Assembly: GCA_964361405.1 (NCBI GenBank)
Contig: CAYIAA010000001.1
Span: 84,917-148,916, forward strand
Direction of reading: 5' to 3'
Length of the DNA stretch: 64,000 nt
From: an uncultured Candidatus Saccharibacteria bacterium
GTDB taxonomy: Bacteria > Patescibacteriota > Minisyncoccia > Phycocordibacterales > UBA3531
Position 1 is the first letter of the stretch. Each line of letters starts with the position of its first letter. The notes beneath the pieces are model-generated. The model had not been told where the DNA came from, did not search any database, and saw only the letters and a program-made list of their open reading frames with translations. Below are positions 2,158 to 12,980 of this stretch, piece by piece. Made by a program: the position numbers and the translations under genes.

Positions 2158-2907
2158 ATGGAAGAGATAAAAATAGGGGAGTCCGGCGGAGCTGGAATAC
2201 TTGAGGCGATGTTTACCGCAGGCGCCCACTATGGCCACACCCGTTCACGCAGACATCCGTCGGTCGCGGCTTTTATCTTTGGAAAGAAAAACGCGAGCGA
2301 GATCATTAATCTTGAAGGGACTAGGGTCTCGCTTGAGCGTGCAGAAGAGTTCCTCGAAGAACTTGGGAAGGCAAGGAAGCAGCTACTTATGGTTGGAAAT
2401 AAACCGGAGGCACGCATGGTACTTCGAAAAGAAGCGGAGCGACTGGGTGTGCCGTACGTCTCGGCACGTTGGATAGGCGGGACGATTACAAACTTCGAGG
2501 AAATCAAGAAGCGCCTCGCCAAGCTTGAGGACCTTCGCGCAAAGCGTTCGAGCGGAGATCTCGACGTATATACCAAGCGTGAGCGTGGGGTGATCGACAA
2601 AGAAATCGGTGATCTTGAGCGGAAATTCTCCGGTCTTCTTACTTTGAAAGGTCTGCCGGGAGCCCTCATCGTCGTTGATTCTCGAGCAGAGGAGATTGCT
2701 GTGCTTGAGGCGCGAGCGCGGAAAATTCCTGTCGTTTCAATTTCAAGTTCCAATTGTGATATTTCAAAAATTGATTACCCTATAGTCGCGAATGACTCAT
2801 CGAGCTCGAGCATTACTTTTTTTATCGGACGTCTCGCGGATGCATATAAGAGGGGAAAGGGTAAGGTGGAGAGCACTAGAGACTCCGAGGATTCTCTCGA
2901 AGCATGA
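2158..2907 (+). CDS. rpsB: 30S ribosomal protein S2
   Basis: AGAHYGHTRSRRHP matches the S2 N-terminal signature. Confidence 0.85.
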   Translation: MEEIKIGESGGAGILEAMFTAGAHYGHTRSRRHPSVAAFIFGKKNASEIINLEGTRVSLERAEEFLEELGKARKQLLMVGNKPEARMVLRKEAERLGVPYVSARWIGGTITNFEEIKKRLAKLEDLRAKRSSGDLDVYTKRERGVIDKEIGDLERKFSGLLTLKGLPGALIVVDSRAEEIAVLEARARKIPVVSISSSNCDISKIDYPIVANDSSSSSITFFIGRLADAYKRGKGKVESTRDSEDSLEA

Positions 2908-3359
2908 TTACTAGAGAAGAGGTCAAGGAACTCCGGGACAGAACCGGAATTTCGATTATGCAATGCCGAGAAGCTCTCGAGATGGCGAAGGGAAATATGT
3001 CCAAAGCGCTTGAGTACTTGAAAGAAAAGGGAGCCGCAATCAAGGAAAAGAAAGGAACACGGATGCTCGGAGCCGGAGCCGTCGAAGCCTACGTCCACAC
3101 CAATCGTCGTATCGGTGCTATGGTGATTCTCTACTCCGAGACTGACTTCGTCGCAGCGAACCCGGAGTTCGTGAAGCTCGCCCGCGATATTGCCATGCAA
3201 GTTGCCGCTACCGGGACTACGGACACAGAGTCTCTCCTCAAAGAGCCGTTTATCAAGGATCCTCGGGGGAGTGTAGGGACGCTTGTTCAAGATGCGATCC
3301 AGAAATTTGGCGAGCGAATCGAGATTGGGAAAGTGGTATACTTTTCAAGTAAGGAATAA
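2904..3359 (+). CDS. tsf: elongation factor Ts (short form)
   Basis: ITREEVKELRDRTGISIMQCREALE is the EF-Ts UBA-like N-terminus. Start overlaps the rpsB stop by 4 nt (ATGA). The short ~150 aa form is typical of CPR. Confidence 0.8.
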   Translation: MITREEVKELRDRTGISIMQCREALEMAKGNMSKALEYLKEKGAAIKEKKGTRMLGAGAVEAYVHTNRRIGAMVILYSETDFVAANPEFVKLARDIAMQVAATGTTDTESLLKEPFIKDPRGSVGTLVQDAIQKFGERIEIGKVVYFSSKE

Positions 3360-3778: not shown

Positions 3779-3804
3779 GCCGCCCTAGCTCAGTGGTATG
3801 ACAG
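3779..3804 (+). pseudogene. degenerate tRNA 5' fragment (acceptor plus D-arm-like GCCGCCCTAGCTCAGTGGTA, no matching 3' half)
   Basis: First about 20 nt are tRNA-like and resemble the 5' end of the downstream tRNA-Thr. The D-stem does not close and no complementary acceptor 3' strand (GGGCGGC) is present before tRNA-Thr. Confidence 0.3.
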
Positions 3805-3840
3805 TGATGTTCTATTTATCCACACCACTTGTAGGCCAAC

Positions 3841-4287
3841 ATGTGGTATACTTCACAAATGGATATCTGTGTGGAGTGCAAAAAGCCAAGGAAAAGATAT
3901 ACCAACAAGTACTGTTCTAATCGATGTCAGGTAGATCACCAATATAAACAGTACATTTCTGCTTGGCAGAAAGGACAGAAAGATGGGAACAGAGGGATTA
4001 ATGCAAAAAATATATCGAGATATTTGCTTAGATTTCTGTTAGAGAAGTGTGGAGAAAAATGCTCCCATTGTGGTTGGAATCAAAAAAATCCACACACCAA
4101 TAGAGCACCCATAGAAATTGATCACATTGACGGAGACGCTAATAATAACCTAGAGAACAACCTAAGATTATTGTGTCCCAATTGTCACGCGCTCACACCA
4201 AGTTTTAGAAATCTGAATAAAGGTAAAGGAAGGAGCTGGAGAAACAGTTACTTGAAAAAGAGACAGGTGTTGCAGATTCCTTCTTAG
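3841..4287 (+). CDS. HNH endonuclease with N-terminal zinc-ribbon
   Basis: CVECKK...YCSNRCQ zinc ribbon; CSHCGW...IEIDHIDGDANNNLENNLRLLCPNCH is a canonical HNH motif. Low-GC codon usage. Confidence 0.8.
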   Translation: MWYTSQMDICVECKKPRKRYTNKYCSNRCQVDHQYKQYISAWQKGQKDGNRGINAKNISRYLLRFLLEKCGEKCSHCGWNQKNPHTNRAPIEIDHIDGDANNNLENNLRLLCPNCHALTPSFRNLNKGKGRSWRNSYLKKRQVLQIPS

Positions 4288-4317
4288 GCTGTATTCTTGG
4301 TGAAGATGTGTGGAGTC

Positions 4318-4392
4318 GCCGGAGTAGCTCAACGGTAGAGCAATGCTTTTGTAAAGCATAGGTTGGAGGTTCAAGTCCTCTCTCCGGCTCCA
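4318..4392 (+). tRNA. tRNA-Thr (anticodon UGU), CCA encoded
   Basis: Acceptor GCCGGAG/CTCCGGC, D-arm GCTC-AACGGTA-GAGC, anticodon stem ATGCT/AGCAT with loop TTTGTAA, T-arm GGAGG-TTCAAGT-CCTCT, discriminator T then CCA. Confidence 0.9.
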
Positions 4393-4421
4393 GAATTAGA
4401 CTTTCCGATTTTTGAACGACG

Positions 4422-4460
4422 AATTAATAGGTGACACAAAGTGTCACCTATTAATTTTAT
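4422..4460 (+). terminator. rho-independent terminator (16-bp perfect hairpin plus T-tract) after tRNA-Thr
   Basis: aattaataggtgacac-aaa-gtgtcacctattaatt followed by ttat. Perfect palindrome. Confidence 0.7.
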
Positions 4461-4499
4461 GGTGGAAAATCAAAGCCACTCGTTTTGGATTTGTTGGTA

Positions 4500-4528
4500 T
4501 TGACTCTGATAATAAAATATGATTTAAT
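4500..4528 (+). promoter_or_regulatory. candidate sigma70-type promoter for island operon (TTGACT-17-TTTAAT)
   Basis: -35 TTGACT at 4500-4505 and -10 TTTAAT at 4523-4528. The region is AT-rich, so chance matches are possible. Confidence 0.3.
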
Positions 4529-4556
4529 ATGTGTAACCCTAGCAGGGGTTTTTATT

Positions 4557-5864
4557 ATGTCAAAGCAATCCGAATTTATGGAAAATCAAGGCAATAAAAC
4601 AATTGCGGTTGTCGGCCTTGGATATGTAGGGATTCCTTTAGCTTTATTGGCTGAAAGAAAGAGCTATAAGGTTATTGGTATAGATATAAACTTAGAAAAA
4701 GTGGAGTTTTTGAACAGACGTATTGCTCCTTTTTCAGACGAAGAAATAACGAAACAGCTGGAAAATTCGTCTTTGGAGGCAACGACTGATTTCAACAAAA
4801 TAAAAGACGCTTCGGTTATCATTATCTGCGTTCCGACACCGGTTTACGAAAATCATATGCCGAATTTAGAGCCGGTTGAAAATGCATGCAAAAATATTGC
4901 TAAATTTTTGCAGAAAGGACAACTTGTGATTTTAGAATCCACAGTAAATCCTGGAGTTTCCGAAAATGTTGTAATACCTATACTTGAAAAAGGATCCGGT
5001 TTAAAGGCTGGCGAAGACTTTTATGTTGCGCATTGCCCTGAACGGGTAAACCCCGGAGATAAAAACTGGACTGTAGAAAATATTCCTAGAGTTGTTGGGG
5101 GGCTTGAAGAAAAGAGCTTAGAAATGGCTTATAGGTTTTATAGCTCAGTAATTTCTGGGCAGATCAAAAAAATGGGCTCTCTTAAAGAAGCCGAAGCGGT
5201 AAAGGTTGTTGAAAACACCTTCCGTGACATTAATATCGCTTTCGTGAATGAACTGGCGATGTCATTTTCAAAACTCGGCATTGATGTCGTTAATGTAATC
5301 AATGGGGCGGCTACAAAGCCATTCGCCTTTATGGCCCATTACCCCGGAGTTGGCGTTGGTGGCCATTGTATCCCTATCGACCCATATTATTTAATTGATT
5401 ACGCAAAACAAAACGGTTTTGAGCACGATTTTTTGAAACTAGCCAGAAAAATTAACAGCAATATGCCCAAGTTTACCGCAGAAAGAGTAGCCAATGCTTT
5501 GAATGAAATGAAGATGGCAATCAATGGAGCTAAAGTTGCGGTGCTCGGCTTGGCTTACAAACCAAATATAGATGATTGCCGTGAAAGCCCAGCGTTTGAT
5601 TTGATAAAAGCATTAGAAAAATACGGCGCAAATGTGGTTTCTTATGACCTGTTTGTGTTGAACAAATCAACTGCCAAATCTCTAGATGAAGCAGTCAAAG
5701 ATTCGGTGGCGGTAGTGATAGCAACTTGCCACGACCAATTCAAGAATTTAGAGCCAGAGTATCTTTTGAAAAACGGTGTTAAAGTCGTCGTGGACGGCCG
5801 TAACTGCCTCCCCAAAGAAAAATTTATTGAGGTCGGGATTGTTTATAAAGGTATAGGACGATAA
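4557..5864 (+). CDS. nucleotide-sugar dehydrogenase (UDP-glucose/GDP-mannose dehydrogenase family; UDP-glucose 6-dehydrogenase-like)
   Basis: Rossmann motif IAVVGLGYVGIPLA and catalytic Cys context GGHCIPIDPYYL. Start chosen at the ATG preceded by AGGGG; the ORF track begins at 4485. Confidence 0.85.
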   Translation: MSKQSEFMENQGNKTIAVVGLGYVGIPLALLAERKSYKVIGIDINLEKVEFLNRRIAPFSDEEITKQLENSSLEATTDFNKIKDASVIIICVPTPVYENHMPNLEPVENACKNIAKFLQKGQLVILESTVNPGVSENVVIPILEKGSGLKAGEDFYVAHCPERVNPGDKNWTVENIPRVVGGLEEKSLEMAYRFYSSVISGQIKKMGSLKEAEAVKVVENTFRDINIAFVNELAMSFSKLGIDVVNVINGAATKPFAFMAHYPGVGVGGHCIPIDPYYLIDYAKQNGFEHDFLKLARKINSNMPKFTAERVANALNEMKMAINGAKVAVLGLAYKPNIDDCRESPAFDLIKALEKYGANVVSYDLFVLNKSTAKSLDEAVKDSVAVVIATCHDQFKNLEPEYLLKNGVKVVVDGRNCLPKEKFIEVGIVYKGIGR

Positions 5865-5868
5865 TCTC

Positions 5869-7233
5869 TTGAATCTTCGAATAGAAAAACAGGTTCTACA
5901 TCGATTTGTAGAATTTTTTGTAGCATTCGCGCTACTCACTGTTTTATTTGGTAAGATTTTTATTAGCTTAAAAGGAGATGAACTTAATCTTTTAATATTT
6001 TATGGAATCTCCGTAACTCTCGCACTCTGGCTAGTATTTTTCTTTGCATTTGTTATTTATGAAGATCCATACAGTGCTTCTAAAATTAAGCTGAAAGGTA
6101 AAAGGCCAAAGAATTATTTAGTAAGTTGTATGGTTGCAGTTCGCAATGAAGAAAAAAATATATCTCGCTGTATGGATTCAATGCTCGTACAATCCTATGA
6201 GAATAAGGAAATTATTGTAGTCAACGATGCAAGCACAGATAATACTCTAAGGATTCTTAGAGAGTACGAAAAAGATGGGCGCATAATTTTAATCAACCTT
6301 AAAGATAATCTCGGCAAAAAAAAAGCACTGGGACAGGCAATGGTGGTAGCCAAAGGAGATATATTTGCCTTTACTGATAGTGATTCTGTATGGGCTTCGG
6401 ATGCTATAAAAAGGATTGTAACGATATTTCAGGCCAATGAAGATATTGGGGCTATAAGTGGCCACAGTAGAGCTTTAAATGGCGACTACAATTTAATGAC
6501 CAAAACTCAGGATTCCTGGTATGAAGGGCAATATTCTGTACGCAAGGCATTTGAGAGTATCTGGGGCGTGGTGACTTGTGTTTCTGGTCCGCTTGCCGTT
6601 TTTCGCAGGGAGGCTATCTATAATTACATACCTGCTTGGGAAAACGACACATTCTTGGGCCAAGAATTTAAATTTGCTACAGATAGAACTTTAACTGGCT
6701 TTGTTTTGGGCAGTAAAACCATTGGCAAAAAACTAAAAGAGAAGTATAAAAACTCTCCTTTTGTAAAGAATATTGATTATCCAGAGAAAGACTGGAAAAT
6801 CGTCTATTGTAAATCTGCTCGCTCGTGGACTATTGTGCCTGATAATTTCCAGAAAGTTATTACACAGCAAGTCAGGTGGAAAAAGAGTTTTATTAGAAAC
6901 ATATTTTTTACAGGATTATTCTACTGGAAGAAACCCCTACTCCCAGCTTTGATGTATTATCTTCATATTCTATTTGTTATAGCTGGGCCATTTATAGTTT
7001 TTAGACACCTATTTTATCTCCCCATAAAGGGTAATTTTTGGACAGCTTTGCTTTATCTCATGGGCATAGTATTTATTGGTTTTATGTTTGGGTTGGCCTA
7101 CAAGCTGGAAAATAAAAATTGCCACAAGTGGATTTATAGACCCTTGATGAGTTTACTGTCAACCCTTGTTTTATGTTGGTTAATATTTTATTCGGCAATA
7201 ACAATTAAGAAAATGACATGGGTAAGGGGGTAA
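5869..7233 (+). CDS. processive family-2 glycosyltransferase, hyaluronan synthase / NodC chitin-oligosaccharide synthase-like
   Basis: Two N-terminal TM helices. Motifs GKKKAL, TDSDS (DXD), GH..AL, VSGPLAVFRRE, TDRTL and QQVRWKKSF (QxxRW) are collinear with streptococcal HasA and NodC. TTG start 5 nt after the upstream stop; a downstream start is possible. Confidence 0.85.
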   Translation: MNLRIEKQVLHRFVEFFVAFALLTVLFGKIFISLKGDELNLLIFYGISVTLALWLVFFFAFVIYEDPYSASKIKLKGKRPKNYLVSCMVAVRNEEKNISRCMDSMLVQSYENKEIIVVNDASTDNTLRILREYEKDGRIILINLKDNLGKKKALGQAMVVAKGDIFAFTDSDSVWASDAIKRIVTIFQANEDIGAISGHSRALNGDYNLMTKTQDSWYEGQYSVRKAFESIWGVVTCVSGPLAVFRREAIYNYIPAWENDTFLGQEFKFATDRTLTGFVLGSKTIGKKLKEKYKNSPFVKNIDYPEKDWKIVYCKSARSWTIVPDNFQKVITQQVRWKKSFIRNIFFTGLFYWKKPLLPALMYYLHILFVIAGPFIVFRHLFYLPIKGNFWTALLYLMGIVFIGFMFGLAYKLENKNCHKWIYRPLMSLLSTLVLCWLIFYSAITIKKMTWVRG

Positions 7234-10200
7234 ATAAAAAATTTAGGTTAATCGAGTATGTTTTTTTAATACTCATTGTCTTTACGTTTTTAACGGTTGC
7301 TGGTAAATATTCTTACAAAGATTTATACGAAAGCTATAAATCTTATAATGAGAGTCGTCGTCAGCAAACTATTGAAATAGAGCGCCAAGCTTATACATGT
7401 CCTCCAGGAACTACAACAATAATCGTAGTTGGGGGTAAGATATGTCGCACTGAAGTTTCTGATTCAACTTATAAAACAATATTTGATACATATCCATTCA
7501 AAAGTAATGGTAAGGAGCAAATTTATGAGTTTTTTTCCGAAGGAGACATTGAAAGTGCTAATCAAATATTAGCAAATAATATTCCCCTTGAGCGATACGG
7601 ATATACAAAAGTATCTGATCCAATGTCTTGGACTGAAGACCCACTTGGAGATAGATATTGGAGATTTTTGTTTTATGGTTTCCGTCCAGTGCAACATTTA
7701 TTTTTTGCTTTTGACCAAACGAATGAAAAAAAATATTTGAAAAAAGCTGAAGAAATAACTTTAAGCTTTATTGACCACGGAACGGACAAGCCTCATGCAT
7801 GGGATGATTTCCACGCGGTCTCATTTCGGACAATGTATCTCATTAAAACATGGTGGATGCTAAGAGAAAACAACCTACTTACTTATGAAGTTAATGAAAA
7901 AATACTCAAAACCCTAGAAGCACACGGAGATTTTCTAGCAGACCCTAATCATTATGATAAGGGATACAATCATGGACTAAATGAAGCGGCGGCATTGTAT
8001 TTGGTAGCTGTAAATTTTCCCGACTTCTCTCAAGCTCCAAAATGGTTGGAGTTATCGAAAAATCGATTAAACGATAGTCTGATAACCGTAGTTGATACGG
8101 ATGGTGTATTAATCGAGAATTCGCCATATTACCATTTCTATACTCTAGAAAAATACTGGGAACTTTACAATTTTGCTCAAAAACAAAACTTTCCGATAAG
8201 TGATATTTTCAACGAACGGCTTCAAGAGATGATTTCCTATGCCACTTATATACTACAGCCAAATAAAGAAATTCCACTTTTAGGAGCTTCTCTCAAACGC
8301 AAAATATCATATTCAGGAATATATAAAGACATTTCTCAATCTTTCCCAGAATTGAAGTACGTTCTTACTAATGGCAAAGAGGGCAACAAACCAACTAAGT
8401 TAAATATTACATATCCTGAATCAGGTGAAGTAATAATGCGTTCTGGATGGGGAGTGGGGGAAGAATTTGAAAATCAAACACAAGCAATTTTTGACTTTGG
8501 ACCGTATCGAACTTTGCATAGTGATTTTGATGCCCTATCGTTTAGTCTATATGCTAATGGCATAAACCTTATGCCGGATGCTGGCCTATACGCCTATGAA
8601 GAAAGCGATTATAAGAATTATTTCCATGGTACCGCTTCTCACAATACAGTAGTGGTTGATGATTTAGATCAGACGAAAGGGACGGCTGTACGAGGCGATT
8701 TTTTAGAAACCAAGGATTATGTTTCTCAATCAGCCGAACACGAATTGTACAAAGGTGTCAGTCATATGCGTAGCGGCACCCTTATCGGTAAAAGGTATTT
8801 ATTAATATTAGACAAATTGACATCTAATGAAGAACATACTTATAAGCAACTTTTTCATTTATTCCCCGGAGCAAGAATTACTACGTCTGGAACTTCAGTT
8901 AAGGTATTTGCTTCTTCTAAAGATGGCGAAGAAGAAGTAATGAATATATTTCAAATGGCGCCGGACAATATCTCACTCGATACCATAATCGGACAAACTT
9001 CTCCGCCTCGTGGGTGGTGCGCAGAAGAGTACGCCAAAGCAATTCCATGTTATTCTTTGGAATACATACAAAAATTTCAAAATGTAACATACGCAACACT
9101 TATTGAAATTGGGAAGCACGATACACGCTTACTGTATTCTTACGATGGGAAATCTATAATTATTAATGACTCGTCGCAGGTAATTAATATTGATGTTACT
9201 GACATCGAGGGATCCTACGGAAGGGTTGCTATATCAAATAATTCTCCTGTTGAGATTGAAAAATCTTCGCTAAATATTCTAAAACCGGAGAACTGGGAAG
9301 TTACAGAAAAAACAAAAAAATATGGTCAATTAATATTTGAGTCTGACTCAATAAGTTTTAGTACTAATACTAGTGGCAATCCTTTTTATGCCAATATTCC
9401 AGTACAGATTGATCTAAGTAATAAAAATCTTTTAATAAAGATGAGAGTTGTAAATCGTTATGATGTAAATAAGTTGGATATTCTGCTATCTACAAATAAC
9501 TGGGAAGGATATATCAGAAGTAACCTCAAAGATTCTTACCGCAAGGAATATGATGGTGAATGGTTAACGATTAGTCTCGGTAAGGGGCTACAGCGAGAAA
9601 CTGGTGGGCAATGGAGACAATATGGCACTGGGTTTGATTGGTCCAATATTAATGCGATAAGAATCGTATTGGGGACAGAAATACAGAAGACCGCCACATT
9701 GCAGTTGGCAGATATTGCCTTAATCCCATCGCAAAAAGAAGGTGAAGTCATTATTGTTTTTGATGATGGTTTTGAATCAATTCTCCCCGCAGTGACCTTA
9801 ATGAACGACTATGGATTTAAGGGAAATATTGCCGTCATAGCTGATAAAGTTACTGGCAACGAAAGAGGCTATCTTTCATTAAAACAGTTAAAACAAATCA
9901 AAGAAGAGCTTGGATGGGATTTAATAAATCATTCAGGACATCACGTAAGTGCACTCGAAGCTTATGTTAAATATAATGATATAGATGGCTTTACAGAAGA
10001 TTTGCTAGCCGGAGCAAAATTTCTTATAGATAACGACTTAAACACTACTCCTAATTGGTATATTTATCCTCATGGTGCGACTAATAAGGCGATTAAGGAT
10101 ATTGTCGGGAAATATTATGCTTTTGCCAGAACAACTATAAATCAGCCGGAAGCATACCCATTTGGTGATCCTCTTGGAGTAAAAACAATTTCTGCTGATG

Positions 10201-10601
10201 GTATGGAATCGTCTGGAACAAAAGTATTTGTTCCAGTTTCAGAATTGGAAAGTGCTATTATCGATGCTAAAACTTACAAATTACCACTATTTATTACCTT
10301 CCATAGAATTAGTTCTTTGCCTGGCGATAAGCCAGGATATGAATTGGGCGAATTTAAAAAATTAATTGACTTTATCAAAAAAGAAAATTTAAAAGTAAAA
10401 ACACTTCGTGAATTCGATAGCGATAATGGTATTGAACAAAAATCGTTGATATTCATCGAAAATCAACCGCCACAGTTAAGTGTCGAAATATATATAAAAT
10501 CTGTTTCCATATTTGCTAGAATACAAAATATCATCATCAATAAATGGTTATTCTTTAGAACCATTGGGGATAAGGTCACCCAAGGTTTAAATTTTTTATG
10601 A
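7218..10601 (+). CDS. membrane-anchored fusion: heparinase II/III-like polysaccharide lyase fold (N-terminal about 650 aa) plus NodB-type polysaccharide deacetylase (C-terminal about 270 aa)
   Basis: N-terminal TM (LILIVFTFLTVAG). YNHGLNEAAALY then SPYYHFY about 50 aa later match the Asn-His...Tyr catalytic arrangement of heparinase II / PL15 / PL17 enzymes. The C-terminus has NodB motifs IIVFDDGFES and NHSGHH. Confidence 0.7.
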   Translation: MGKGVNKKFRLIEYVFLILIVFTFLTVAGKYSYKDLYESYKSYNESRRQQTIEIERQAYTCPPGTTTIIVVGGKICRTEVSDSTYKTIFDTYPFKSNGKEQIYEFFSEGDIESANQILANNIPLERYGYTKVSDPMSWTEDPLGDRYWRFLFYGFRPVQHLFFAFDQTNEKKYLKKAEEITLSFIDHGTDKPHAWDDFHAVSFRTMYLIKTWWMLRENNLLTYEVNEKILKTLEAHGDFLADPNHYDKGYNHGLNEAAALYLVAVNFPDFSQAPKWLELSKNRLNDSLITVVDTDGVLIENSPYYHFYTLEKYWELYNFAQKQNFPISDIFNERLQEMISYATYILQPNKEIPLLGASLKRKISYSGIYKDISQSFPELKYVLTNGKEGNKPTKLNITYPESGEVIMRSGWGVGEEFENQTQAIFDFGPYRTLHSDFDALSFSLYANGINLMPDAGLYAYEESDYKNYFHGTASHNTVVVDDLDQTKGTAVRGDFLETKDYVSQSAEHELYKGVSHMRSGTLIGKRYLLILDKLTSNEEHTYKQLFHLFPGARITTSGTSVKVFASSKDGEEEVMNIFQMAPDNISLDTIIGQTSPPRGWCAEEYAKAIPCYSLEYIQKFQNVTYATLIEIGKHDTRLLYSYDGKSIIINDSSQVINIDVTDIEGSYGRVAISNNSPVEIEKSSLNILKPENWEVTEKTKKYGQLIFESDSISFSTNTSGNPFYANIPVQIDLSNKNLLIKMRVVNRYDVNKLDILLSTNNWEGYIRSNLKDSYRKEYDGEWLTISLGKGLQRETGGQWRQYGTGFDWSNINAIRIVLGTEIQKTATLQLADIALIPSQKEGEVIIVFDDGFESILPAVTLMNDYGFKGNIAVIADKVTGNERGYLSLKQLKQIKEELGWDLINHSGHHVSALEAYVKYNDIDGFTEDLLAGAKFLIDNDLNTTPNWYIYPHGATNKAIKDIVGKYYAFARTTINQPEAYPFGDPLGVKTISADGMESSGTKVFVPVSELESAIIDAKTYKLPLFITFHRISSLPGDKPGYELGEFKKLIDFIKKENLKVKTLREFDSDNGIEQKSLIFIENQPPQLSVEIYIKSVSIFARIQNIIINKWLFFRTIGDKVTQGLNFL

Positions 10602-11539
10602 AACTAATTATTATTTTCTTTTTATCTTTTATATTTATTGTGTTTTTATATTCACATCCTAAGATTTTAATGCCAACACACTCAACATCAATCAAAGAAA
10701 AGAATCCAATCCTAGTTTCCCCAAGACCTAGCAATACCCCCGTTGTCACAGATGGGATTAAAATACTCTACCCAACGAAAGAAAATGGACGAGTCTGGTA
10801 TGCAGGGTGGTCAGATAGAGACGCGATAACCTTAAAAAGCGGAAAAAGCGACCCTTCTGACTTAGAATTTATTGCCCGAGGTAATGGAACGGTTTCTATT
10901 GGTGGTGAAGGCATAGCCCACCTTCAAGGGGCTTCTCCAAGAATGTATGTTCTTGATCCTGCAAAAAATAAAAAATGGAACAATGTCGAGGTTACGATAT
11001 ATGGAAAACGTATATCAGAAGCTGGTTTCGAGAGCTCGCAAGGCATAGTAATTGGAGCTAGAAGCGAGCATCAGGATGCAACGAAAGAAACCTCCTGCCT
11101 CGGGTGGACATATTATGGAAGATTACTTTATGATGGGCGTGCAGTTTTTCAGAAAGAAATAATTCATGAGGGAGCATATAGTATAAATAAACCAGAGGAG
11201 AATAATAAAGCGATTTGGGACACTACTGACGGTTCATTGCCGCGGAATAAATGGATCGGGGTAAAGTTTATAGTAAAAACAAATCTCGATAGAAAATCAG
11301 TAAAGTTAGAGCTTTACCGTGATTTAACGGACGGCTATAAGGGAGGAAATTGGGAAAAAGTCGCAGAATATACTGATAGCGGTGATTGGTTTCAAACTGA
11401 TACTGACGCAGACGTGATGGCGGTGTGCGGTTACCCAGCAAGTAAAATACTTTTAGACTCCGGTACTTCTGTTTTTATAAGAAATGATAAGGTTAAAGAT
11501 GTGGAATATAAATTATTCAGTATTAGGGAAATAGAGTAA
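10598..11539 (+). CDS. secreted or membrane-anchored beta-sandwich (concanavalin/jelly-roll-like) protein, possible polysaccharide-binding or lyase
   Basis: N-terminal signal/TM (MKLIIIFFLSFIFIVFLYS) and a beta-rich sequence. ATGA overlap with the upstream gene. Family not identified. Confidence 0.5.
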   Translation: MKLIIIFFLSFIFIVFLYSHPKILMPTHSTSIKEKNPILVSPRPSNTPVVTDGIKILYPTKENGRVWYAGWSDRDAITLKSGKSDPSDLEFIARGNGTVSIGGEGIAHLQGASPRMYVLDPAKNKKWNNVEVTIYGKRISEAGFESSQGIVIGARSEHQDATKETSCLGWTYYGRLLYDGRAVFQKEIIHEGAYSINKPEENNKAIWDTTDGSLPRNKWIGVKFIVKTNLDRKSVKLELYRDLTDGYKGGNWEKVAEYTDSGDWFQTDTDADVMAVCGYPASKILLDSGTSVFIRNDKVKDVEYKLFSIREIE

Positions 11540-11657
11540 TTACAAATTGAGTCCAAAGCAAGCAGTGGTGAGGAGGCTTTCATTAGTTAGGAATTTTTGA
11601 TAAAGTAGATTCTAACACAGTCATAAAGATACTTGTGATAAATCTAATAACATTCAT

Positions 11658-12173
11658 ATGGTTAATGTAGGAACACAGGCACCAGATTTTGAACTCGAGG
11701 GAGTGAAGGATGGCACATTCGCGAAGTATGCCCTTAAAAATTTCAAGGGGAAGTGGCTTGTGATATTTTTCTATCCACTCGACTTTACTTTTGTCTGCCC
11801 GACGGAAATCAGAGAATTTTCGAAACATACATCTGACTTTAAAAAGGCAAAAGCTGAAATAGTGGGAGTCTCTGTCGATTCCGTGCATTCGCACAAGGCA
11901 TGGATTGAGCACTCGCTGGGAAAGATTCATTTCCCACTCCTTTCTGATTTTCATAAAACTATGTCTACGGACTATGGAGTTCTAATTCCCGAAGAGGGTG
12001 TATCACTACGTGGGACTTTCATTGTTGACCCAAAGGGAATAATTCGACACATTACTATATCGGATAATGATGTTGGGCGAAGTGTTTCAGAAACGCTTCG
12101 GGTTGTGAAGGCATTACAGACAGGCCGCCTTTGCCCTGTTGAATGGAAACCTGGCGAGAAAACTCTTTCATAA
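11658..12173 (+). CDS. 2-Cys peroxiredoxin (AhpC/TSA family)
   Basis: Peroxidatic Cys motif FTFVCPTEI and resolving Cys near the C-terminus (GRLCPVEW). Confidence 0.85.
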   Translation: MVNVGTQAPDFELEGVKDGTFAKYALKNFKGKWLVIFFYPLDFTFVCPTEIREFSKHTSDFKKAKAEIVGVSVDSVHSHKAWIEHSLGKIHFPLLSDFHKTMSTDYGVLIPEEGVSLRGTFIVDPKGIIRHITISDNDVGRSVSETLRVVKALQTGRLCPVEWKPGEKTLS

Positions 12174-12239
12174 TTTTTACATCGATTCACAAAAAAGCTC
12201 TTTACCAAGGGCTTTTTTGAATGTATAGTTGAGCTACTT

Positions 12240-12980
12240 ATGCATATTGAGAAAATCCAGCGGAATGGTCACCTTCATCCACTCACCCTAATTATTAGGG
12301 ACTTGCTCGAAATATTTATTTCCCTTGGTTTTTCTATAGCCGAGAGTCCGGAACTTGAAAGCGAGCATTATAATTTTGATGTATTAAATATTCCCAAAAA
12401 TCATCCAGCTCGCGATATGCAAGATACTTTTTGGATTAAGGGGAGGAAAGACACCGTTCTTCGTACCCATGTATCAAATACACAAGTTCGTTACATGGAG
12501 AATAATAAACCGCCACTGCGAATTGTCTATTTCGGAAAAGTGTTCCGCAGTGAAGCAACCGACGCTACGCACGAAGCGCAATTTCGTCAATTTGAGGCGC
12601 TTGCCGTGGGGGAAGATATCACACTCGGTAATTTGAAATGGACACTTGAGCTTTTTCTAAAAAAACTTTTTGGCGAAAATGCTGAAATCAGGATTCGCCC
12701 TGGATATTTTCCATTTGTTGAACCAGGTCTCGAAGCGGATGTCGCGTGTTTTAAATGCGCTGGGAGAGGTTGCGGGCTCTGCAAGCACACTGGTTGGATT
12801 GAAGTATTGGGGGCAGGTATGGTGCACCCGAAAGTACTTGAAGCGGGAGGTATTGATAGCACGAAGTGGCGGGGGTTTGCATTTGGAGCCGGGTGGGAAC
12901 GCATAGCAATGCTCAAATACGGCATTGATGACATCCGACTTTTTTCTTCGGGTGACTTGCGGCTCGTGAATCAATTTTAA
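12240..12980 (+). CDS. pheS: phenylalanine--tRNA ligase alpha subunit (short form lacking N-terminal extension)
   Basis: Class II core motifs (FRSEATDATHEAQFRQFE; GAGWERIAM); immediately followed by pheT. Confidence 0.85.
   Translation: MHIEKIQRNGHLHPLTLIIRDLLEIFISLGFSIAESPELESEHYNFDVLNIPKNHPARDMQDTFWIKGRKDTVLRTHVSNTQVRYMENNKPPLRIVYFGKVFRSEATDATHEAQFRQFEALAVGEDITLGNLKWTLELFLKKLFGENAEIRIRPGYFPFVEPGLEADVACFKCAGRGCGLCKHTGWIEVLGAGMVHPKVLEAGGIDSTKWRGFAFGAGWERIAMLKYGIDDIRLFSSGDLRLVNQF

Follow-up and report, generated by a model that had tools for sequence, protein, structure and literature searches.

A four-gene operon pairing a hyaluronan-synthase-like glycosyltransferase with a UDP-N-acetylhexosamine 6-dehydrogenase-clade enzyme in a Saccharibacteria genome: a widely conserved candidate pathway for a surface polysaccharide

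Class I hyaluronan synthases (HAS), which include HasA of Streptococcus and of the Bacillus cereus plasmid pBCXO1, the Chlorella virus enzyme (CvHAS), and Xenopus HAS1, are single-polypeptide membrane glycosyltransferases of family GT2 with two N-terminal transmembrane (TM) helices, and when given UDP-N-acetylglucosamine (UDP-GlcNAc) alone HAS enzymes make chitin oligomers. Synthase-dependent exopolysaccharide systems (alginate Alg8/AlgL, poly-N-acetylglucosamine (PNAG) PgaC/PgaB, Pel PelF/PelA, cellulose BcsA/BcsZ) add to the synthase an enzyme that cleaves the polymer and, in many cases, a deacetylase. The UDP-N-acetylhexosamine (UDP-HexNAc) 6-dehydrogenases TviB of the Vi antigen, WbpA/WbpO, WecC, and Cap5O feed undecaprenyl-phosphate/Wzx-Wzy or ABC-transporter pathways. 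In some fungi, chloroviruses, and phaeoviruses, a UDP-GlcNAc 6-dehydrogenase (UNGD) gene and a chitin-synthase-like gene are kept as a pair, with a polysaccharide deacetylase as the third gene of the cluster in one clade (Chen 2014, PMC4059230; Goncalves 2016, PMC5122149). Here, a 64,000-nt stretch of DNA (the window) from an uncultured Candidatus Saccharibacteria bacterium (GCA_964361405.1, contig CAYIAA010000001.1, positions 84,917 to 148,916), whose 150.6-kb contig comes from a 0.1-um-filtered Hainich groundwater metagenome, is described with a comparable module: a dehydrogenase of the UDP-HexNAc clade, a HAS-like GT2, a membrane-anchored protein with a PL12-like and a CE4 deacetylase domain, and a conserved partner protein of 313 aa (P313), whose genes form one real, coherent, and widely conserved operon (4557-11539).

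All four genes lie on the + strand. The dehydrogenase (4557..5864, 435 aa, ATG start) is separated by 4 nt from the GT2 (5869..7233, 454 aa, TTG start), which overlaps by 16 nt the gene of the PL12-like/CE4 protein (7218..10601, 1127 aa), and this in turn overlaps by 4 nt the gene of P313 (10598..11539); the four proteins add up to 2,329 aa, and an unrelated peroxiredoxin gene follows 118 nt past the last of them. The public gene call (ENA) for the GT2 is identical, with the same TTG start and 454 aa, and that for the dehydrogenase is likewise 435 aa, while its mechanical open reading frame (ORF) extends back to a TTG at 4485. The minus strand beneath the first two genes holds no ORF of at least 80 aa. 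An earlier note on this DNA, drawn from the letters and a list of ORFs, had described a hasB-hasA-like pair with a TTG-initiated GT2, and the pair, its coordinates, and its start codon agree with both sets of calls. The dehydrogenase is indeed directly 5' of the GT2, at a distance of 4 nt rather than the 5 nt given there, but the unit does not end with the pair and runs on to the PL12-like/CE4 fusion and the fourth gene. The likeness to the hasB-hasA gene order does not hold either: in the Bacillus has operons the dehydrogenase sits 3' of hasA (hasA-galU-dehydrogenase), and therefore the order here differs from theirs. Moreover, has operons, with hasB/hasC on the 3' side, lack the extracellular PL12 and CE4 partners that this operon has, and it carries a UDP-HexNAc dehydrogenase on the 5' side.

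The evidence supports the GT2 as a processive synthase integrated in the membrane, of the same kind as HAS, NodC, and chitin synthases, and by sequence and predicted fold the Class I HAS are its closest characterised and solved relatives. Aligned with the authentic HasA of B. cereus pBCXO1 and NodC of Sinorhizobium, both taken from annotated plasmids, it shares invariant columns at G149-K150, D170-S171-D172, G240-P241, D272-R273..T276, Q333-Q334.R336-W337..S340, and W451, and each motif that the earlier note had matched to HasA and NodC falls on such a column; SGPL corresponds to S239-G-P-L242 and QxxRW to Q333-Q-V-R-W337. With the Class I HAS it has in common the two N-terminal TM helices, the GK(K/R), DSD, (C/S)GPL, xDDR-type, and QQxRWxKS motifs, and the C-terminal W..R gating loop. 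The relatedness is nevertheless distant, with identities of 27-28% to HasA, 23-29% to NodC (mainly over the N-terminal two thirds), about 20% to CvHAS, and 19-28% to known HAS overall, and the GT2 departs from the Class I enzymes in a 25-28-aa Lys-rich insertion, in ATDR instead of GDDR (T271 stands where the first acidic residue of the (G)DDR-type motif is expected), and in W-x-R instead of WGTR. The similarity is nonetheless well above what chance would give: searches returned CvHAS, with Xenopus HAS1 the best sequence match among solved structures, at E 4e-18 with phmmer and 1e-24 with the family profile, HasA at E 1e-25 and NodC at E 2e-24 with tblastn, and the Pfam models PF03142 (Chitin_synth_2, 54.4 bits, threshold 27) and PF00535 (Glycos_transf_2, 109.9 bits, threshold 23.3). 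The NodC model TIGR04242 (114.8 bits, cut-off 550) matched residues 82-280 only, and the PgaC/IcaA model TIGR03937 (119.3 bits, cut-off 422.3) residues 40-260 only.

The AlphaFold2 (AF2) model, built on 26 family members (pLDDT 88.9, pTM 0.88), places TM1 at 9-33 and TM2 at 40-63, which agrees with the two N-terminal helices proposed in the earlier note, the GT-A domain at 85-321, QQVRW (333-337) on an interface helix, TM3/4 at 357-414, and an amphipathic interface helix at 420-444, followed by the gating-loop-like W451-V-R453 with the stop codon right after. In the alignment, the terminal WVRG falls opposite the terminal WGTR of HasA, the motif being one residue shorter in the GT2, and since HasA too ends exactly at its gating loop, the predicted architecture is that of the bacterial HasA helix for helix. 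Foldseek ranked Xenopus HAS1 (E 2e-19) and CvHAS first (TMq 0.67-0.74), with chitin and cellulose synthases at about 0.5. Class I HAS are thus the best homologues, and not the cellulose-synthase-like proteins or dolichol-phosphate transferases that the earlier note had considered as the alternative outcome.

At the sequence level, however, the GT2 belongs to a separate, large, and highly conserved family without a close (orthologous) relationship to known HAS. A search at E<=1e-5 collected 1,435 cluster representatives, of which the best 120 share 59% identity or more with the window protein; the aligned members span 59-83% identity, and relatives were found in 199 GTDB species genomes. The family signature consists of ATDR where HAS has GDDR/GEDR and of W-x-R where HAS has W-x-x-R. 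The Lys-rich insertion (aa 281-308, GSKTIGKKLKEKYKNSPFVKNIDYPEKD, encoded at 6709..6792 on the + strand) lies between the catalytic ATDR helix and the strand preceding QxxRW. In line with the earlier note on HasA and NodC, the alignment finds no counterpart of G281-D308 in either protein, nor is there one in CvHAS, where the segment is unaligned, or in a distant Paenibacillus relative. All of the 26 aligned family members keep the insertion, with K290 and W309 invariant, so that it is a hallmark of the family rather than a peculiarity of this one protein; in the model it forms a short helical hairpin (helices 282-292 and 297-300, block pLDDT about 95).

The second component that separates this operon from the has operons is the dehydrogenase. 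It holds all three Pfam UDPG_MGDP_dh domains, the NAD motif GLGYVG (aa 20-25), and the catalytic Cys271 within GGHCIPIDPYY, and scores 433.7 bits with TIGR03026 (cut-off 189.8). Among the NCBIfam models it reaches 362.5 bits with the archaeal UDP-N-acetylmannosamine (UDP-ManNAc) dehydrogenase NF040825, 265.8 with the UDP-GlcNAc 6-dehydrogenase TviB (NF011729), and 255.6 with WecC (NF008286), the respective equivalog cut-offs being 750, 592, and 459, whereas the UDP-glucose dehydrogenase models give 77-208 bits (Ugd 77). The best PDB match is the Pyrococcus horikoshii enzyme 4r16 (293 bits), with the Methanosarcina mazei enzyme at 252 and Cap5O at 241; the Streptococcus pyogenes HasB 1dli gives 74 bits. 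Overall, HasB-type enzymes score 74-127 bits against 210-293 for HexNAc-type enzymes, identity is 34% to Escherichia coli WecC and 26% to the pXO1 HasB-type enzyme, and the context of the catalytic Cys in HasB reads GGSCFPKD. By sequence, the enzyme is therefore placed in the UDP-HexNAc 6-dehydrogenase clade (WecC/TviB/Cap5O-like). The neighbour of the GT2 is a UDP-sugar 6-dehydrogenase-family enzyme, as the earlier note had it, and yet not one of the HasB type; the signature around the catalytic Cys, proposed there to separate Ugd from WbpA/WecC-type enzymes, points to the WecC-like clade. Since the dehydrogenase is not HasB-type, the UDP-glucuronic acid (UDP-GlcA) precursor is removed and hyaluronan is no longer the predicted product; the note had foreseen that a UDP-ManNAc/UDP-GlcNAc-type enzyme would shift the predicted polymer, and the clade placement has this effect. 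What stands of the original idea is a HAS/NodC-like GT2 beside a sugar dehydrogenase, without the hasB-hasA identity and without hyaluronan. Compared with TviB, WbpA/WbpO, WecC, and Cap5O, the window enzyme differs in adjoining a HAS-like synthase and in scoring below every equivalog cut-off, and because no such cut-off is reached, its substrate epimer is not fixed by homology.

The third gene encodes a protein with a TM anchor (aa 7-33), a heparinase-III-like PL12 domain (aa ~113-581), an uncharacterised middle part (aa ~600-830), and a CE4 polysaccharide deacetylase domain (aa ~839-963). The Pfam models Hepar_II_III_N/C score 69.1 and 100.2 bits and the best PDB match is heparinase III (HepIII) of Pedobacter heparinus (4mmh, 102 bits), while the HepC equivalog NF045573 gives 129.7 bits, below its cut-off of 700. 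In the HMMER alignment N251, Y305, H434, and H516 face the identical residues N216, Y270, H400, and H486 of the HepIII chain, the essential catalytic residues known as N240, Y294, H424, and H510 in the literature numbering (chain numbering +24). These four positions are kept in 26-27 of the 28 homologues, and the range becomes 26-28 when H475 and R518 are included. Both Pfam domains and the N, Y, and two H residues are thus common to this protein and to the PL12 heparinases III of P. heparinus and Bacteroides thetaiotaomicron; conversely, the window protein is membrane-anchored, fused to CE4, located within a biosynthetic operon, and related at 102 bits only. The CE4 domain (PF01522, 26.3 and 28.9 bits, threshold 23.1) has the motifs F848-D-D-G and H905-S-G-H-H909, and D849-D850 are conserved in 26-27 and H905 in 21 of the 28 homologues. 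The arrangement of a GT2 adjoining a CE4 deacetylase is shared with rhizobial NodC/NodB, although NodB is small and cytoplasmic whereas the CE4 domain here is predicted to be extracytoplasmic and fused to a lyase-like domain, and the nod cluster has no dehydrogenase. Similarly, PgaC/PgaB, PelF/PelA, and Alg8/AlgL/AlgG combine, as in the window, a processive synthase with extracytoplasmic cleaving and deacetylase functions (and an epimerase in alginate), but the cleaving module here is PL12-like and not a glycoside hydrolase or PL5. Genes for a c-di-GMP receptor, a TPR scaffold, or a porin were not seen near the cassette in the neighbour census described below.

The fourth protein, P313, comprises an N-terminal TM/signal anchor, a disordered linker, and a concanavalin A (ConA)-like beta-sandwich in the AF2 model (pLDDT 88.5). 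Neither sequence nor profile searches matched it to Pfam or the PDB, its 150 homologues carry no informative names ('hypothetical protein' wherever named), and Foldseek returned weak lectin/ERGIC-53-type matches (TMq 0.33-0.40). The conserved R155, H158, Y172, and E187 could point to an enzyme rather than a lectin. P313 follows the deacetylase in many loci, and its domain is sometimes fused to the deacetylase or to the PL12 protein. At six loci (L018, L031, L041, L044, L045, and L050), P313-like domains occur within proteins of 640-1,600 aa, fused to CE4/PL12 or repeated; since they sit inside larger fused proteins, P313 behaves as a mobile module of the cassette.

The conservation of the cassette was followed by calling ORFs in 78 non-redundant loci of GTDB species genomes and searching them with iterated profiles of each window domain. 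The series dehydrogenase-GT2-deacetylase, with the PL12 domain optional, recurs in bacteria of the Candidate Phyla Radiation (CPR), in DPANN archaea, in Methanosarcinales, and in Actinomycetota, with two predominant architectures: one, as in the window, runs from the dehydrogenase and GT2 to a protein of ~1,100-1,200 aa (TM, PL12-like domain, middle part, CE4) and P313, and the other has an optional dehydrogenase, the GT2, a CE4 protein of ~510-560 aa, and P313. In the 66 loci with enough flanking sequence, a CE4 deacetylase stands 3' of the GT2 in 53 and a PL12-like domain in 30. When the dehydrogenase is called by tblastn, so that high-GC genes of actinomycetes overlooked in the ORF calls are included, it lies directly 5' of the GT2 in 46/72 loci (64%). 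The census disclosed no other recurring neighbour of the GT2. In ten diverse loci (Streptomyces, Kitasatospora, Micropruina, other Actinomycetota, Saccharibacteria, Binatia, Pacearchaeota, Bathyarchaeia, Ryanbacteria), the adjacent dehydrogenase ranked HexNAc-type models over UDP-glucose types in every case. PL12-bearing loci show a trend towards having the dehydrogenase more often than PL12-less loci, and on a neighbour-joining tree the dehydrogenase and PL12 states are intermixed. No flanking-gene synteny was found between the window and the other loci. Cassette GC tracks that of the host (0.27-0.73), often under that of the flanks, and amounts in the window to 0.37 against 0.48, with a tRNA gene adjoining. 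This pattern fits repeated horizontal transfer, also between bacteria and archaea, whose GT2s retain 56-66% identity with the window protein, and no relatives were found in IMG/VR that would indicate viral carriage.

The precursor sugar can be approached from the same set of loci. Some GT2 family members (~700 aa, 60-63% identical) carry an N-terminal GlmU-type uridylyltransferase domain, and tblastn with E. coli WecB, run over the whole 64-kb window and over 80-plus loci up to 10 kb from the GT2, detected no UDP-GlcNAc 2-epimerase, whereas in E. coli wecB directly adjoins wecC. These fusions, the constant deacetylase partner, which is of the type acting on N-acetyl-sugar polymers, and the lack of a detected 2-epimerase point to UDP-GlcNAc as the entry metabolite. 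A distant relative of the GT2 (31% identity, 625 aa, with a long N-terminal extension) is encoded on the Paenibacillus cellulositrophicus plasmid NZ_CP045296.1 (L087, 4445-12075) in the order deacetylase, GT2, deacetylase, GH18. This cluster may be a bacterial chitin/chitosan-type synthase system; by analogy, it would join synthase, deacetylase, and cleaving enzyme as the window does, with a member of the chitinase family taking the part of the lyase-like domain, and it is consistent with a beta-1,4 HexNAc backbone that gains uronate when the dehydrogenase is present.

With confidence that we put at about even, the operon is read as a synthase-dependent, UDP-GlcNAc-based pathway for a beta-linked surface polymer of GlcNAc and N-acetylglucosaminuronic acid (GlcNAcA), which would lose part of its N-acetyl groups and be cleaved or epimerised once outside the cell. 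The cytoplasmic dehydrogenase would oxidise UDP-GlcNAc at C6 to UDP-GlcNAcA, as its clade, its context, and the lack of a detected epimerase suggest. The GT2, whose architecture and catalytic motifs parallel those of Class I HAS, NodC, and chitin synthases, would polymerise GlcNAcA, alone or with GlcNAc, and extrude the chain through its own TM channel; the substrates are inferred, and the beta linkage follows from the inverting GT2 mechanism. Outside, the anchored PL12-like domain would take the C5 proton of 4-linked uronates, leading either to beta-elimination (length control or release) or to C5-epimerisation, while the fused CE4 domain would strip some of the N-acetyl groups and yield an acidic or zwitterionic chitosan-like polymer; the domains, the topology signal, and the conserved residues are observed, and the activities are proposed by analogy with AlgL/AlgG, PgaB, and PelA. 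More speculatively, the ConA-like P313 might bind or further process the polymer, which would form a capsule or adhesive layer. An export porin would not be needed, because the CPR cell has no outer membrane. On a more tentative level, the product may be a polysaccharide not yet known in nature, namely beta-linked poly-GlcNAcA or alternating GlcNAc/GlcNAcA ('acidic chitin'), in part de-N-acetylated to a zwitterionic polymer and remodelled by the PL12 fold as chain-length lyase or C5-epimerase.

The nearest precedent for the prokaryotic cassette is the UNGD-CHS8-deacetylase cluster of eukaryotes and giant viruses. In Trichoderma, the UNGD-cda1-chs8 cluster is induced in mycoparasitism and CHS8 has been likened to hyaluronan synthases (Kappel 2020, PMC7053769); the polymer made by the UNGD-CHS8 clusters is not chemically defined in the papers that describe them (PMC4059230, PMC5122149, PMC7053769). 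Clusters of UNGD, a synthase of the CHS8/CV/ESV class, and a deacetylase present the same three-part module as the window, together with a patchy distribution for which horizontal transfer has been proposed, but they differ in their hosts and in the GT2 family employed, and no PL12-like domain or P313 has been reported for them. The window GT2 is 17% identical to EsV-1-84 (TMq 0.59) and 16% to a chlorovirus protein. It is thus no closer to the viral proteins than to HAS, and the prokaryotic cassette is accordingly an analogous module that uses a GT2 family of its own and has the PL12-like domain and P313 as further components. Full-text literature searches found no published description of the prokaryotic GT2 family or of the cluster. 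The bacterial 'division 1' chitin synthases (Goncalves 2016, PMC5122149) were considered and set aside as a separate gammaproteobacterial group, and a link to methanochondroitin for the Methanosarcinales members was dropped, as no supporting literature or chemistry was found.

Several observations weigh against the GlcNAc/GlcNAcA pathway. The dehydrogenase falls below every equivalog cut-off, and its homology is compatible with GlcNAc as well as with ManNAc (or GalNAc). No adjacent dehydrogenase was found in 26/72 loci, no GT2 alignment column separates the loci with the enzyme from those without it, and it follows that the synthase may be a GlcNAc polymerase for which uronate is optional. The co-occurrence of dehydrogenase and PL12 has p=4e-4 with ORF-based and p=0.11 with tblastn-based calls, neither corrected for phylogeny, and one locus with a GlmU-GT2 fusion has a PL12 domain and no adjacent dehydrogenase. 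Within the 1127-aa protein, the second metal-binding His of CE4 (H909) is kept in 14/28 homologues, and sequence does not separate lyase from epimerase activity for the PL12-like domain.

Some of these points converge on the alternative that survives best, to which a minor but real share of belief is due: the GT2 would polymerise GlcNAc alone, CE4 would convert the chain into a chitosan-like polymer, and the dehydrogenase would feed another glycan or supply an occasional residue. It would account for the deacetylase as the most constant partner, for the loci without a dehydrogenase, whose GT2 sequences are like those of the others, for the UDP-GlcNAc indicated by the GlmU fusion, and for the GH18 gene beside the Paenibacillus relative. 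It does not account for a dehydrogenase that is translationally coupled to the GT2 across the 4-nt gap and keeps its 5' place in most loci, in an operon that offers no other glycosyltransferase to use its product, nor for a PL12-type domain that has an intact catalytic set and would find no substrate in a uronate-free polymer. Less probable, and on balance unlikely, is a UDP-ManNAc (or UDP-GalNAc) dehydrogenase giving a polymer with N-acetylmannosaminuronic acid, possibly C5-epimerised by the PL12-like domain to N-acetyl-L-gulosaminuronic acid in analogy with alginate. The top NCBIfam and PDB matches of the dehydrogenase (NF040825, 362 bits; 4r16, 293 bits) are named UDP-ManNAc(A) dehydrogenase, which speaks for this proposal, but all scores lie far under the equivalog cut-offs, neither the window nor the related loci showed a UDP-GlcNAc 2-epimerase, whereas E. 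coli has wecB next to wecC, and the GlmU-domain fusions indicate UDP-GlcNAc.

A degradative role, in which the PL12/CE4 protein and P313 would attack foreign glycosaminoglycans of a host or of the environment and be chance neighbours of the biosynthetic pair, is very unlikely: the characterised PL12 enzymes are indeed catabolic heparinases, but the ORF of the 1127-aa protein overlaps the synthase gene, its place directly 3' of the GT2 persists from phylum to phylum and in both domains with flanking genes that differ, and the protein is membrane-anchored rather than secreted. A true hyaluronan synthase operon, or one for a heparosan- or chondroitin-type polymer containing GlcA, can hardly be maintained, despite Class I HAS being the closest solved relatives and a heparinase-III-like domain being encoded next door, because the operon lacks a source of UDP-GlcA (no gene of the Ugd type was detected in it, and the dehydrogenase scores with HasB-type enzymes far below HexNAc-type ones) and the GT2 family, 27-28% identical to HasA and with its own ATDR and W-x-R variants and its own insertion, is distinct from HAS, while an inverting GT2 cannot form the alpha linkage of heparosan.

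Some features of the surroundings are of note. The operon lies in a low-GC stretch (3800-12200, GC 0.32-0.42 against ~0.50 elsewhere) together with an HNH-like ORF (3841-4287), a tRNA-Thr(TGT) gene immediately 5' of the operon (4318..4392, + strand), which is context outside the pathway, and the peroxiredoxin gene. An integrase-type island beside the tRNA gene was considered and set aside, as neither an integrase nor a direct copy of the 3' end of the tRNA was found, and only the compositional anomaly stands. Apart from this tRNA, no Rfam family was found near the pair, and promoter and terminator scans performed no better than on shuffled sequence. Between the tRNA gene and the operon, a 31-nt imperfect inverted repeat (4407-4471) with a perfect 15-bp core (ATTAATAGGTGACAC / GTGTCACCTATTAAT) may act as the terminator of the tRNA gene or as a palindromic site for a protein. 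A small GC-containing hairpin (4535-4550, AACCCTAGCAGGGGTT then TTTATTATG), directly 5' of the dehydrogenase ATG, overlaps what is probably the ribosome-binding site of this gene and could affect the initiation of its translation or be due to chance. Elsewhere in the window, EF-Ts (2904-3359, 151 aa) and PheS (12240-12980, 246 aa) are both unusually short, a hint of a reduced genome of the CPR/Patescibacteria type. In a CPR-like contig (L091, 2881-13431; ENA ERZ27275259 k141_33306), a GT2 fused to a GlmU-type uridylyltransferase domain precedes PL12+CE4 and P313-like genes, no dehydrogenase lies next to it, and the cassette adjoins type IV secretion system (T4SS)-pilin/TraC-like genes and a sortase. 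Lastly, five CPR loci (L009, L010, L012, L017, and L028) have a second, longer GT2 and large multi-TM proteins just 5' of the cassette; judged by eye, the latter resemble GT-C/ArnT-type glycosyltransferases and hint at a larger surface-glycan region.

The genomes of CPR bacteria and DPANN archaea are tiny, and the cells, which mostly live attached to others, bear a surface coat that is largely uncharacterised. A cassette this compact and this well conserved, kept by many of these organisms and apparently exchanged across domains, is a specific candidate for the coat, and its enzymes resemble tractable models (HAS, CE4, PL12) closely enough to be tested directly in heterologous hosts. HAS-like synthases accepting UDP-HexNAcA would, moreover, serve the chemoenzymatic synthesis of glycosaminoglycan analogues. 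If the product contains GlcNAcA, it would be a new natural glycosaminoglycan-like polymer, it would provide a substrate for many orphan PL12-like proteins of non-degrading organisms, and it would offer a possible chemistry for the CHS8/UNGD/CDA clusters of fungi, which have been associated with virulence and mycoparasitism. Were the acidic-chitin proposal true, the chitin-synthase/HAS lineage would have a third class of product, and the ultra-small CPR and DPANN cells would have a surface or attachment layer that functionally parallels the UNGD-CHS8-CDA clusters of fungi and algal giant viruses.

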